Shown piece by piece: positions 13,852 through 16,565 of a stretch of DNA of 64,000 nt. Position 1 is the stretch's first letter, and each line of letters begins with the position of its first letter. The stretch comes from Escherichia phage PGN829.1. Location of the stretch: sequence record NC_070871.1. One strand, written 5' to 3'. Under the pieces are notes generated by a model. That model saw only the letters and a list, made by a program, of their open reading frames with translations, did no database searches and was not told the origin of the DNA. The position numbers and the translations under genes are program-made.

Positions 13852-13885
13852 AAAAATAAAGCCCCACTCCCGAAGGAATGAGGCT
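13852..13885 (-). terminator. intrinsic terminator (minus strand)
   Basis: 10-bp stem (two G-U wobbles) with CGAA loop, followed by TTTATTTTTT on minus strand; just downstream of the RNAP II gene stop at 13892. Confidence 0.5.
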
Positions 13886-13891
13886 AGTTTA

Positions 13892-15109
13892 TTAACTTAA
13901 TGCATAGTCTGTTTCGAGAATGTCCTGCCAGAGGCTGTCATCCAGCTTACCAGCAGAGAACTCTTGTCCCAGTACCTGAGACAGAATGAATCCCAGTAGG
14001 TCACTCTTAGCAATGTCAGACAGAATCTGGTTGTACTGACGACGTAAGTCATTACCGTAGTTAGGATGGCAACGGAAGCAGTCATGTACAGTCATTACAG
14101 GGAATGGTTTCTTAGGCATAGTATTGAGCATAGCCATGATTACATCTGTATCAACCAATGCAATCGTTTCTGAGTCCAGATAGTCAAAGATACGGGTAGA
14201 CAGGAAGCCAGACTTCTCATAACTAGTCCACAGTGTATTAACCATTTCATAGTTATCATCAGAACCTACCATGTAGTCACCAGTTCCTTCACAGAGGGAC
14301 TTAATATAGTTCACCTGGTTCATATCGAAGTTACAACGACGTAGCATCTCACGTACCACCATTCCATCAATAGAGTGGGTGATGTTAGCAGAGAGCATAC
14401 GGGTCTTCTCTTCAGTACCCTGAACCATACGAGTGATGTCAAATGGCTTACCTAAGAAGTTAACAGTCTGTACTTCTGGAACCATGACCTTAATGACAGC
14501 ATGGAAGTTGTCAGGTAATACCCATACGTAACGATTAGCATCCGGGTTACCACATTGCAGTAAGAACTTGTTAAGTGCCCAAGGACCACTTGCAACTGTT
14601 TCCATTACATTTTCAAAAGTCTTGAGACGGATACCATCCCCGAATACTTCTTTAGGTTTGGCTTCTGAACCGTAGAATGCAGTCATAACTGCCTGCTTGG
14701 TATCACTACGTTTAATACGGGATGCTTCCCCAAGGATGTCCAGCATCTTGTGATAGATAACTGTATAGGCATCACGACGTAATGGCTTACCATTCTCTCC
14801 CATGTAGTTAACTACGTTACACAGTTCAGCAGCAGAACGGTCACCAGTCAGGCAGGCCAGTAACTGCAAGCCTGATGATGTAGCATCCAGGGCTACGGCA
14901 TATCCGATAGGCTTACCAGCTTTCATATCTTTCCATGCGTTTATGCCAGCATAGAATAGTGCAGATTCTTCAGCTTCATCTACCAGATTAAGCAGGTTAG
15001 CTTCGTTCTCATCGAACCAAGCAATACGCTCATCCCAGGTCTTTTTATCCAGTCCGTAAGAATTCGCAATATCAATTTTTAAATACTCTTTCGGTGTGAA
15101 AATCTGCAT
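13892..15109 (-). CDS. phage RNA polymerase II large subunit (T7-like single-subunit RNAP C-terminal half; N4 gp16-like)
   Basis: 405 aa; DATSSGLQ resembles T7 RNAP motif A (DGSCSGIQ) and HDCF resembles motif C (HDSF); size matches N4 p4B. Confidence 0.75.
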   Translation of the reverse strand: MQIFTPKEYLKIDIANSYGLDKKTWDERIAWFDENEANLLNLVDEAEESALFYAGINAWKDMKAGKPIGYAVALDATSSGLQLLACLTGDRSAAELCNVVNYMGENGKPLRRDAYTVIYHKMLDILGEASRIKRSDTKQAVMTAFYGSEAKPKEVFGDGIRLKTFENVMETVASGPWALNKFLLQCGNPDANRYVWVLPDNFHAVIKVMVPEVQTVNFLGKPFDITRMVQGTEEKTRMLSANITHSIDGMVVREMLRRCNFDMNQVNYIKSLCEGTGDYMVGSDDNYEMVNTLWTSYEKSGFLSTRIFDYLDSETIALVDTDVIMAMLNTMPKKPFPVMTVHDCFRCHPNYGNDLRRQYNQILSDIAKSDLLGFILSQVLGQEFSAGKLDDSLWQDILETDYALS

Positions 15110-15110
15110 C

Positions 15111-15704
15111 TTAGGCTCCTAGTTTCCACTTATATCCGTATGCTTGTGCATACGTACCATTAATTACTTTATTAATATTAGAAGGTATACCATTAACACT
15201 TCGTGCAGCAGCACTGAGTGAATGGAACGTCTTAATGTATTCACCATCTAGTGAGTACTGCTCAACAGGTTTAGCTGATTTAGTATTGATGCCCTTGATT
15301 GCGTCGGAGTAGTACCTCTTTACGTTGGTATTAGCTGTAACAATGCGAATGTTATCCAGGGAGTAACCTTTGTAATCATCCAGTCTGTCTAAGCTAGGCT
15401 TCAAGGCAGTTGGGTAATTTTCCAATACCCACTCGTCATACAATGTGTGAAATTCTTTTCTTGAGTATACCCATTTCTCTAGCTCCTCCTTAGTGAAGGA
15501 TACAGGAGTAAATCCTTTCTTCTTGGTTCTACTAATACAGCCGGAGTACATTTGATTAATGACTCCGTGTTTTGAGCGTATAAAGCGTTTAAGGCAGTCT
15601 TTACAGTCTGCCCTTACACCTTGCTTACCTGTGGACTGTTTATTGAACATGTCCAGAGGCAAGTTCTGCTTACATACTGAACATGTCTTCATACTAATCC
15701 TCAT
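15111..15704 (-). CDS. homing-endonuclease-like protein (zinc finger + HNH-like region + NUMOD-like C-terminal DNA-binding motif)
   Basis: 197 aa; CxxC...CxxC near N-terminus; LDRLDDYKGYSLDNIRIVTANTN (HNH-like); C-terminal VEQYSLDGEYIKTFHSLSAAARSVNG...AYGYKW (NUMOD1-like). Inserted between the two RNAP II subunit genes. Confidence 0.5.
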   Translation of the reverse strand: MRISMKTCSVCKQNLPLDMFNKQSTGKQGVRADCKDCLKRFIRSKHGVINQMYSGCISRTKKKGFTPVSFTKEELEKWVYSRKEFHTLYDEWVLENYPTALKPSLDRLDDYKGYSLDNIRIVTANTNVKRYYSDAIKGINTKSAKPVEQYSLDGEYIKTFHSLSAAARSVNGIPSNINKVINGTYAQAYGYKWKLGA

Positions 15705-16512
15705 TTACTAGTTCTTTGTCTGCAAATTCGATAACAGCTTTGTTATAGGAAGTACCTGCATAATTAATATGGTAACCACAGGCATATGTACGCCCTCGTT
15801 TGTCATATTTGTGAGCCAAGGAGAAGTTATTACCTTCTTTGGTCACTAACTCCATTACTTCCTTAGCAGTACGGCTGTACTTCTCAAAGGCTTTAACACG
15901 TTTCTCATAGTCCTGACGGGTTTCGCCTTCTTTGGGCTTATCCATATTAGGACGAGAGTCTTTTACATAGTTAGCAACGTCCCAGTTGATACTTAGTCGT
16001 TGATTATTCATACGGTTGATATGGTCAAGACAGACATCCATCTCATGATGGTTCTTCTTGAGGATGATACTTCCCCTGCTCTCGTAGTAACCTGTATCAC
16101 GGTTACACAGAACAGGCTTAGGAGCACTTACGATAGGTAATGGATACTGGAATGCTTCCAGTTCCATCTGAACATCTTCACTAATCTCATAGATAACACC
16201 GAACTTGTCGATGGTGGGGTCATAGTTGAAGCAGTCATTCTCTGCCATCTTATACAGACAGTCAGCAATGTACTGAGCATCATCTGAATGGCTCATGAGA
16301 GAGCCAATCATAGTCTGAATGTCAGCACGTTTATGTAGGGCAATCTGCACCATTGCATCAATGAGCAGCTTATAATCAATTTCCAAATAGGCAGCGAATG
16401 CCTTAAAGTCAATTTCTTCGGAGTCCTCAAATTCCTTCCTCATGCGAGGCAAGAGCTGATTTTTATTGAATAGTTTTTCGAGTTGCTTCTGATGTTCAAT
16501 GGATGAGTACAT
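15694..16512 (-). CDS. phage RNA polymerase II small subunit (T7-like RNAP N-terminal part; N4 gp15-like)
   Basis: 272 aa (N4 p4A about 269 aa); DKRGRTYACGY resembles the T7 RNAP DxRGRxY region; directly upstream of large subunit apart from the endonuclease insertion. Confidence 0.6.
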   Translation of the reverse strand: MYSSIEHQKQLEKLFNKNQLLPRMRKEFEDSEEIDFKAFAAYLEIDYKLLIDAMVQIALHKRADIQTMIGSLMSHSDDAQYIADCLYKMAENDCFNYDPTIDKFGVIYEISEDVQMELEAFQYPLPIVSAPKPVLCNRDTGYYESRGSIILKKNHHEMDVCLDHINRMNNQRLSINWDVANYVKDSRPNMDKPKEGETRQDYEKRVKAFEKYSRTAKEVMELVTKEGNNFSLAHKYDKRGRTYACGYHINYAGTSYNKAVIEFADKELVNED

Positions 16513-16565
16513 CGCTTATTCTCCTAAATATTATTAATAACCAAAAGCTGCGGAGCAGCTATTAC

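Follow-up and report, generated by a model that had tools for sequence, protein, structure and literature searches.

Which gene lies between the two subunit genes of RNA polymerase (RNAP) II in Escherichia phage PGN829.1, and how did it come to be there? We analysed a 64,000-nucleotide (nt) stretch of this genome (NC_070871.1), below called the window. All window features discussed are on the minus strand, and their coordinates are window positions. The listing of open reading frames (ORFs) gives, in this order, a 272-amino acid (aa) ORF (15694..16512), a 197-aa longest ORF (15111..15704) and a 405-aa ORF (13892..15109). A sequence-only reading had taken the middle ORF for a free-standing homing endonuclease inserted exactly between the RNAP II subunit genes. 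The ORF is real and both flanks were confirmed. The 272-aa ORF is the small subunit gene (N4 gp15-type, RNAP1), as seen from PHROG 2166 'N4-like RNA polymerase' (E 1.3e-115) and the annotations of relatives; the 405-aa ORF is the large subunit gene (N4 gp16-type, RNAP2), as seen from PHROG 2051 'RNA polymerase' (E 2.1e-176) and Pfam RNA_pol. The homing endonuclease reading is supported by sporadic presence, an empty site and a linked recoded tract, from which cleavage and homing are deduced. We put the probability at about 0.75 that the gene (15111..15692, 193 aa, stop included) encodes a free-standing homing endonuclease that belongs to the His-Me finger (beta-beta-alpha-metal) superfamily, has a PacI-type active site and homes via a target in the 5' part of RNAP2. 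The insertion is not exactly between the genes: the candidate mobile unit extends into RNAP2 and takes in a recoded copy of its first 17-20 or so codons.

The gene is sporadic among close relatives. With a query of 2.8 kilobases around it we retrieved 59 phage records (60-95% identity), most of them from phages of Escherichia and Shigella; the window belongs to a G7C-like coliphage (genus Gamaleyavirus, Schitoviridae, N4-like). Comparison of the junction in related genomes, which the sequence-only reading had proposed as a check, bore it out: an orthologue is present in five of the 59 records only, namely ST4, Bas96, G7C (two records) and Moonfish. The junction is empty in EC1-UPM and phiG17, where the subunit genes are separated by a spacer of 54-56 nt with a hairpin. 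The gene has its own start and stop between conserved genes, outside any intron or intein. Altogether, the RNAP1|RNAP2 junction has at least seven alleles in Gamaleyaviruses, two of them being other endonuclease types. Besides this gene, it may be occupied by a 53-aa ORF, by a 79-aa ORF alone or with extra sequence, or by either of two HNH_3+AP2 endonuclease genes. The junction is thus a hot spot and a convenient natural system for mobile nucleases competing for one site in an essential operon.

Homologues with 33-57% identity were found at the same junction in a 70-kilobase N4-like metagenomic contig (L014), in Vibrio phages pVco-5 and pVco-7, and in phages HK2 and pSb-1. In three short contigs, L019, L020 and L021, the homologue is directly upstream of RNAP2, and the 3' end of RNAP1 is also visible in L019. 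In Acinetobacter phage XC38 and Erwinia phage MIF8 the homologue is just downstream of RNAP2. Thus the association of this family with the RNAP II genes, at their junction or beside them, extends over several Schitoviridae genera. The junction of HK2 and pSb-1 contains a distant, 204-aa member of the same family; RNAP1 of HK2 is 97% identical to that of the window, whereas the endonuclease is 33% identical, which indicates replacement at the same site. Other distant homologues occur in unrelated contexts (P0035 with a portal gene downstream, P0031 by a lysis-type peptidase, P0029 by a capsid gene), and thus the association with RNAP is restricted to the closer lineage. A search of the window for paralogues of the gene (tblastn) found none.

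The second line of evidence is the 5' end of RNAP2. Comparison of carriers with non-carriers revealed that codons 1-20 (15050..15109) form a recoded tract, co-inherited with the endonuclease gene. Over the first 51 nt the window has 17-21 differences from five non-carriers, versus four from G7C, whereas in codons 18-250 all comparisons yield about 4-7% differences. More than half of the changed codons in the tract are synonymous. The recoded 60-nt tract accompanies the gene in all carriers and is found in no non-carrier examined. In the phage database only the five carrier records match it from the first base (83-92% identity), whereas other relatives reach no more than 77% identity along its full length, or align only from nt 31 onward. 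The surrounding sequence tells another story. In codons 18-250 of RNAP2 the window has 26 differences from the non-carrier UE-S5a and 47 from the carrier G7C. Since the tract is shared with G7C but the flanks are nearer to UE-S5a, the gene with its 60-nt flank differs in history from the surrounding polymerase genes. Such linked flanking polymorphism is expected of a free-standing homing endonuclease, and we infer that the recoded tract is an immunity and co-conversion tract. Within it there is a 24-nt core, TATTTAAAAATTGATATTGCGAAT (15062..15085, RNAP2 nt 25-48), with at most one mismatch in the Gamaleyavirus carriers examined and in L014, whose RNAP2 is 50% identical, and with six to eight mismatches in non-carriers of the same genus. 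The core is less similar in L019, L021 and pVco-7, and we build nothing on it.

The contigs L019, L020 and L021 point to the position of insertion. In each of them a second, shortened start of RNAP2 is found upstream of the endonuclease homologue (e.g. MQTFTGLEYLKIDIANN), followed by unrelated sequence and a stop codon, and the complete RNAP2 starts right after the endonuclease gene. The old and new copies agree at 33-40 of 51 nt as far as codon 17, versus 14-15 of 51 beyond it. All three break points are after codon 17, at ...AA(T/C)AAC|T. The upstream (old) copies read GAATACCT, with TACCT as in Gamaleyavirus non-carriers, whereas the downstream (functional) copies read TATTT or TATCT, as in the window and other carriers. 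Eight of the nine codon differences between the two copies in L020 are synonymous. We read the remnants as the trace of a break near codon 17/18 of RNAP2 that would have been repaired from a carrier, with the endonuclease gene and the donor RNAP2 start copied in and an illegitimate join formed upstream. Transferred to the window, the break point corresponds to RNAP2 nt ~52 (15058), which we infer to be the neighbourhood of insertion or cleavage. A duplicated RNAP2 start upstream of the gene was looked for in the window, G7C, L014, pVco-7 and HK2, and none was found. The window and G7C have a clean upstream join, with the gene following RNAP1 directly; the recoded tract still ends at codon 20, in the region where the remnants break. 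The target is therefore likely to be inside the 5' coding sequence of RNAP2, and not at the intergenic junction. Taken together, the comparison of carriers with non-carriers and the three remnant loci yield a concrete candidate target, around codons 8-18.

Could the same pattern arise without mobility? The gene might be an accessory gene (moron) that does not move: an old N4-like ancestor would have passed it on vertically, most lineages would have lost it, and ordinary phage recombination would have produced the polymorphic junction. Indeed, G7C-like phages recombine frequently (bioRxiv 10.1101/542787), the junction also houses the non-nuclease 53- and 79-aa ORFs and so looks like a site of general plasticity, and the gene has diverged together with RNAP2. 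However, the 60-nt recoded tract is sharp and ends where three other loci have their remnant break points, G7C shares the gene and tract whereas the flanks are nearer to a non-carrier, and the protein has the architecture of known homing endonucleases. We therefore consider such an origin very improbable.

If the gene is a homing endonuclease, the following mechanism may be suggested. As read from the sequence, RNAP1, the endonuclease gene and RNAP2 share one early transcript, and the endonuclease gene has a Shine-Dalgarno box of its own within the 3' end of RNAP1. In a cell infected by both a carrier and a non-carrier Gamaleyavirus, the enzyme would bind and cut or nick RNAP2 of the non-carrier. 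The site would be around GAATACCTGAAAGTAGATATCGCCAATAAC|T, within the first ~55 nt of RNAP2. With the carrier genome as template, repair would then copy the endonuclease gene together with adjoining markers. The carrier itself would be immune due to the recoded codons 2-20 of its RNAP2. As the gene and the tract would be copied together, the mobile unit would consist of the endonuclease gene and a replacement RNAP2 5' end, and thanks to this replacement it could settle in an essential operon while leaving both subunit genes intact.

The protein itself is consistent with this scheme. It consists of an N-terminal Cys4 zinc ribbon (15594..15683; C4, C7, C30 and C33 in the numbering of the 193-aa protein), a short helical bundle, a beta-beta-alpha-metal nuclease core (15294..15398, aa 99-133; invariant P99, S100, D102, R103, D106, Y110, N114 and N123), and a C-terminal NUMOD1-type DNA-binding domain (15120..15266, aa 143-191). 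The Cys4 zinc finger and the NUMOD-like C-terminus had been proposed from the sequence alone, and both stand. Each of the four cysteines is present in 108-111 of 117 family representatives (mutually at most 50% identical). The NUMOD1 domain (PF07453) scores 32.7 bits against a gathering cut-off of 22.8 (E 8.5e-8) and is the sole Pfam match that passes. The domain searches thus supported NUMOD1 and assigned no non-nuclease function. In the confident AlphaFold2 model (predicted local distance difference test, pLDDT, 92) a zinc-ribbon-like N-terminus and helices precede a strand-loop-strand-helix unit (99-133), which is followed by a linker and then a small C-terminal domain. The segment LDRLDD...NIRIVT, described as HNH-like in the sequence-only reading, indeed falls within the predicted beta-beta-alpha unit, with Tyr110 in the loop between the strands, and this beta-hairpin with an alpha-helix is the core fold of His-Me fingers. 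The HNH assignment itself did not hold: no Pfam HNH model matched at E<1, neither an HNH nor an Endonuclease_7 domain was reported by the Pfam and NCBIfam scans, and an arginine is at the position of the histidine.

The alignment of homologues contains an invariant motif PSxDRxDDxxxYxLxNIxLxT..N. Each of D102, R103, Y110, N114 and N123 is present in 108-115 of the 117 representatives (R103 in 115, D102 and Y110 in 114, N123 in 113). The general-base histidine of HNH enzymes, expected at the end of the first strand, is replaced by Arg103, and no representative has histidine there. As Arg103 is kept across the representatives, this is a trait of the family and not decay. A profile search against PDB sequences aligned the motif to GVDRSDSFEGYSPQNARLACFICN of PacI, with D, R, Y, N and N at identical spacing, and the N-terminal CxxC...CxxC likewise to that of PacI; hhalign versus PacI yielded a probability of 82% (E 1e-5). 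The metal-ligand positions of His-Me fingers, the Asn in the core helix and the Asp before the His position, are occupied: D102 and N123 align with the Asp and Asn of PacI, and D102 also with D74 of I-HmuI. Y110 aligns with the sole tyrosine of the PacI loop SDSFEGYSPQN. PacI, an active enzyme (PMC4081073), lacks the histidine, a loop tyrosine acts in its place, and Asp and Asn hold a single metal ion; it defines a small, mostly viral group (group 20) of the His-Me finger superfamily (PMC5714182, PMC4081073, PMC3384342). By residues, the protein has two features of this group, absence of a catalytic histidine and a loop tyrosine in its stead, and catalytic use of the tyrosine is suggested by this analogy. 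Two Cys4 zinc sites per subunit, a further feature of the group, are not seen: only the N-terminal one is present. From the alignment, the predicted catalytic centre is of the PacI type, with tyrosine and without histidine, and not a canonical HNH site. By analogy with PacI, Asp102 and Asn123 would hold one divalent metal ion, and Tyr110 would replace the missing histidine, either as a base or as a nucleophile.

An alternative is that the protein is a former HNH enzyme that lost its histidine and activity and is kept for DNA binding, similar to the SMAD MH1 domain. Arginine replaces the general base throughout the family, there is no Pfam HNH match, and some His-Me groups without histidine can be inactive (PMC5714182). 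However, the inactive groups lack both the histidine and an equivalent tyrosine, whereas here Tyr, Asp, Asn and Arg are invariant at exactly the PacI spacing, and PacI is active (PMC4081073). Besides, the recoded flank and the duplicated remnants imply breakage and repair of DNA at the site. Loss of catalysis is thus hardly credible, and a PacI-type nuclease is preferred.

The databases label this large family 'endonuclease VII' or 'HNH', although its active site is of the rare PacI type. At E<=1e-30 the family comprises at least 2,121 cluster representatives; a length of about 200 aa and end-to-end matches are common among them. PHROG 1035 ('endonuclease VII') matches the protein over the full length (E 6.5e-31). 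We rejected this label: Pfam Endonuclease_7 has no match at E<1, and T4 endonuclease VII is not among the PDB-sequence matches or the top structural matches. It appears to be a misnomer resting on the N-terminal zinc ribbon. A search of the PDB with the single sequence produced ribosomal bS1m and WT1 zinc fingers, which we consider to be chance matches; I-HmuI and PacI emerged only in the profile search.

The gene is under strong purifying selection. Among the five orthologues, the ratio of nonsynonymous to synonymous substitution rates (dN/dS) is 0.05-0.13 at dS up to ~1.0, compared with 0.04-0.07 for RNAP1 and 0.04-0.24 for RNAP2, and thus the gene is not decaying. Across distant N4-like phages the divergence of homologues tracks that of RNAP2 (Spearman 0.77 without HK2; as the pairs are not independent, this value is descriptive only). 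The identities of endonuclease, RNAP1 and RNAP2 to the window are 53, 50 and 50% in L014 and 31, 40 and 35% in pVco-7. One possibility is that the gene has been domesticated and persists because it is useful to the phage: it may, for instance, destroy the genomes of relatives infecting the same cell (marker exclusion as a weapon in competition), or it may regulate the operon through DNA binding near the RNAP2 start, as I-TevI represses its own promoter. Such domestication overlaps with homing in mechanism and differs in the reason for the persistence of the gene. A dN/dS as low as in the essential polymerase subunits, divergence of the same-junction homologues in step with RNAP1 and RNAP2 (L014, pVco-7), and the 24-nt RNAP2 core, kept at synonymous sites between carriers with proteins only 50% identical and perhaps used by the protein or the mRNA, speak for it. 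On the other hand, the gene is missing from 54 of the 59 relatives, several of which have something else at the site, the catalytic residues are invariant and not just the DNA-binding tail, and the conservation of the 24-nt core comes from few independent lineages and is weaker in L019, L021 and pVco-7. Domestication is thus unlikely, and we retain the mobile endonuclease with a target in RNAP2.

Several points weigh against the latter. The canonical catalytic histidine is absent, and so is the second Cys4 site that surrounds the active site in PacI. Strong purifying selection and tracking of RNAP2 divergence are also expected of a useful, vertically inherited gene. The window has no remnant, and the break point was transferred from relatives that are 45-57% identical. 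The literature searched contains no cleavage, target-site or co-infection work on this protein or its family. Finally, the only PacI-like enzyme of a Skunavirus that was put to an exclusion assay does not figure among the enzymes reported to lower plaquing (PMC12724721).

The gene is already known in kind and by annotation (G7C gp15.1) and is not a discovery. The additions made here are a corrected start, the PacI-type active site, a proposed mobile unit that reaches into RNAP2, and a candidate target site that can be tested.

As to the start, the sequence-only reading had the gene overlap RNAP1 by 11 nt. This did not survive comparison: the overlap depends on an upstream ATG at 15704, yielding 197 aa, that is confined to the phage of the window and arises from a single synonymous AAT codon in RNAP1, where G7C, ST4, Bas96 and Moonfish have AAC. 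In these four phages the annotated start is the second ATG (window 15692), 2 nt after the RNAP1 stop codon TAG. Thus the gene most likely starts at 15692 and encodes 193 aa, and the overlap is, by this comparison, an artefact of ORF calling. Position 15704 also illustrates that calling the longest ORF can create a spurious gene overlap from one synonymous change. A candidate Shine-Dalgarno box of the endonuclease gene, GAGGA (15698..15702), is within the last RNAP1 codons (GAG GAT), 5 nt before the ATG; it is kept in all five carriers, and EC1-UPM and PhAPEC7 have GAAGA there. The other end is as the sequence-only reading had it: the stop codon (15113-15111) is followed by one base and then by the RNAP2 ATG (15109). 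The candidate Shine-Dalgarno box of RNAP2, AGGAG (15116..15120), is within the last endonuclease codons, is kept in all carriers, and stands in place of AAGGAA of the non-carrier spacer. Homologous genes have a hairpin ATGGTG...(17-19 nt)...CACCATG in their 5' leader (L014 3954-4003; L019 ~1405-1441, a G.U variant; L020 ~160-192), in which the 3' arm covers the start codon and the loop holds the Shine-Dalgarno box. It is absent from the window. By analogy with T4 endonuclease genes, it may provide translational control.

A terminator-like hairpin was found upstream of RNAP1 (16546..16560) and another one, with an 11-base-pair stem and a T-run, after RNAP2 (13860..13885). The same scan found none between RNAP1 and RNAP2. 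With hairpins only at the outer ends, the three genes look like one transcription unit. A sigma-70 scan found no coding-strand sites between RNAP1 and RNAP2, fewer than in shuffled sequences; N4-type promoters are outside its scope.

The other alleles of the junction have features of their own. In EC1-UPM (L002 1377-1432) and at the equivalent positions of L003-L006, relatives without the gene or with another allele, a conserved spacer upstream of RNAP2 contains a hairpin GGCTCTCCATAGTGGGGAGCC without a T-run and the RNAP2 Shine-Dalgarno box. This spacer is wholly missing from the window and G7C, and thus is dispensable. The 79-aa ORF (MSRLKLWLISQEENTGWDTYDSAVV...) is at the junction in UE-S5b (L027 969-1208), 24-32N (L024 1114-1353), E20 (L026 1086-1328) and AN24P2 (L025 1469-1708), and the 53-aa ORF of PhAPEC7-type phages is unrelated to it. 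Directly upstream of RNAP1, AN24P2 has a 158-aa ORF (MNWHEIFEYANGRIYWKIKP...; L025 158-634), at a place taken by small hypothetical genes in the other relatives; this ORF may be one more insertion of the endonuclease type.

RNAP2 is also polymorphic further downstream. In the window it is intact and has no intron at QAVMTAFYGSEAK, the intron site described in bioRxiv 10.1101/542787. A second mosaic block (window 14090-14330, RNAP2 nt 780-1020) is 40-72% identical to EC1-UPM and UE-S5a, and 83-97% to PhAPEC7 and PW8. It is just upstream of aa ~343, where an HNH_3 endonuclease gene splits RNAP2 in Moonfish and L014, and may be the footprint of another homing event. In pVco-7 (L007 3132-5228) and XC38 (L008 350-2424) RNAP2 is split into two ORFs by a 175-183-aa ORF without a Pfam match, resembling the spliced group I intron in gene 16 of the G7C-like phages N4G2 and Sz33 (bioRxiv 10.1101/542787).

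Free-standing homing endonucleases are commonplace in virulent phages. In the literature searched no homing enzyme with a PacI-type active site has been characterised. A tentative generalisation, which we regard as possible and somewhat doubtful, is that the gene represents a very large class of PacI-type homing endonucleases that depend on a tyrosine in place of the histidine and have NUMOD1 tails. Within this class, one lineage would have resided at the 5' end of RNAP2 since before the N4-like genera diverged, invading essential coding sequence without an intron or intein by means of a recoded replacement of ~17 codons. A bolder idea, and a far less probable one, is that the division of N4-type RNAP II into two subunits goes back to an ancestor of this lineage, by analogy with the similar insertion that split the DNA polymerase of phage 10Gb.

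Among known genes, the closest is G7C gp15.1 (AEL79623.1, HQ259105), annotated as 'putative HNH homing endonuclease', with orthologues in ST4, Bas96 and Moonfish. The protein of the window is 86-96% identical to these four (94-96% in the case of gp15.1), which have the same RNAP1|RNAP2 place, the same junction sequences and the same RNAP2 5' haplotype. There is no substantive difference, except that the window alone has the extra in-frame upstream ATG. The annotations of this type, 'endonuclease VII' or 'HNH', are by similarity only. Overall, G7C has five putative homing endonuclease genes (PMC3670811), and in G7C-like phages gene 16 has an intron and the DNA polymerase is split by an endonuclease insert that is not spliced (bioRxiv 10.1101/542787).

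The likeness to PacI (PDB 3ldy/3m7k) comprises the N-terminal CxxC...CxxC ribbon, the D-R...Y...N...N core, the loop tyrosine and the lack of a catalytic histidine. However, PacI is a 142-aa homodimer recognising the 8-base-pair palindrome TTAATTAA, with a second Cys4 site and no NUMOD. The cysteines of that site (HCGYC...C...CFIC) have no counterpart in the protein of the window, which has a NUMOD1 tail and a mobile-gene context, and the similarity is remote. The NUMOD1 tail is of the kind found in I-HmuI of Bacillus phage SPO1 (PDB 1u3e); it suggests that the protein, like I-HmuI, may act as a monomer on a long asymmetric site. In contrast, I-HmuI has a canonical D74-H75...N96 site, has no N-terminal Cys4 ribbon, is encoded by a group I intron and nicks one strand.

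The Seg proteins of T-even phages are GIY-YIG enzymes and the Mob proteins are canonical HNH enzymes, and their activity and biased inheritance were shown experimentally, whereas for the gene of the window both are deduced from sequence. SegB, SegG and MobE resemble it in being free-standing between conserved genes and sporadic, with co-conversion of flanking markers and marker exclusion (in part, PMC12724721). Two free-standing Skunavirus genes were classed as PacI-like by HHpred in a 2025 study and are likewise phage-encoded and variable in presence (PMC12724721). They come from other phages and are inserted in the morphogenesis module; the likeness is one of HHpred class and not of direct sequence comparison. 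In the mitochondrial atp6 element of Allomyces, a mobile endonuclease ORF carries a copy of the end of its target gene, and the displaced original end stays as a remnant. In elements of this type the 3' end is replaced and the enzymes are GIY-YIG, whereas here the 5' end is concerned and the window has no remnant. The combination of an intact target gene and a remnant is the same as in L019, L020 and L021.

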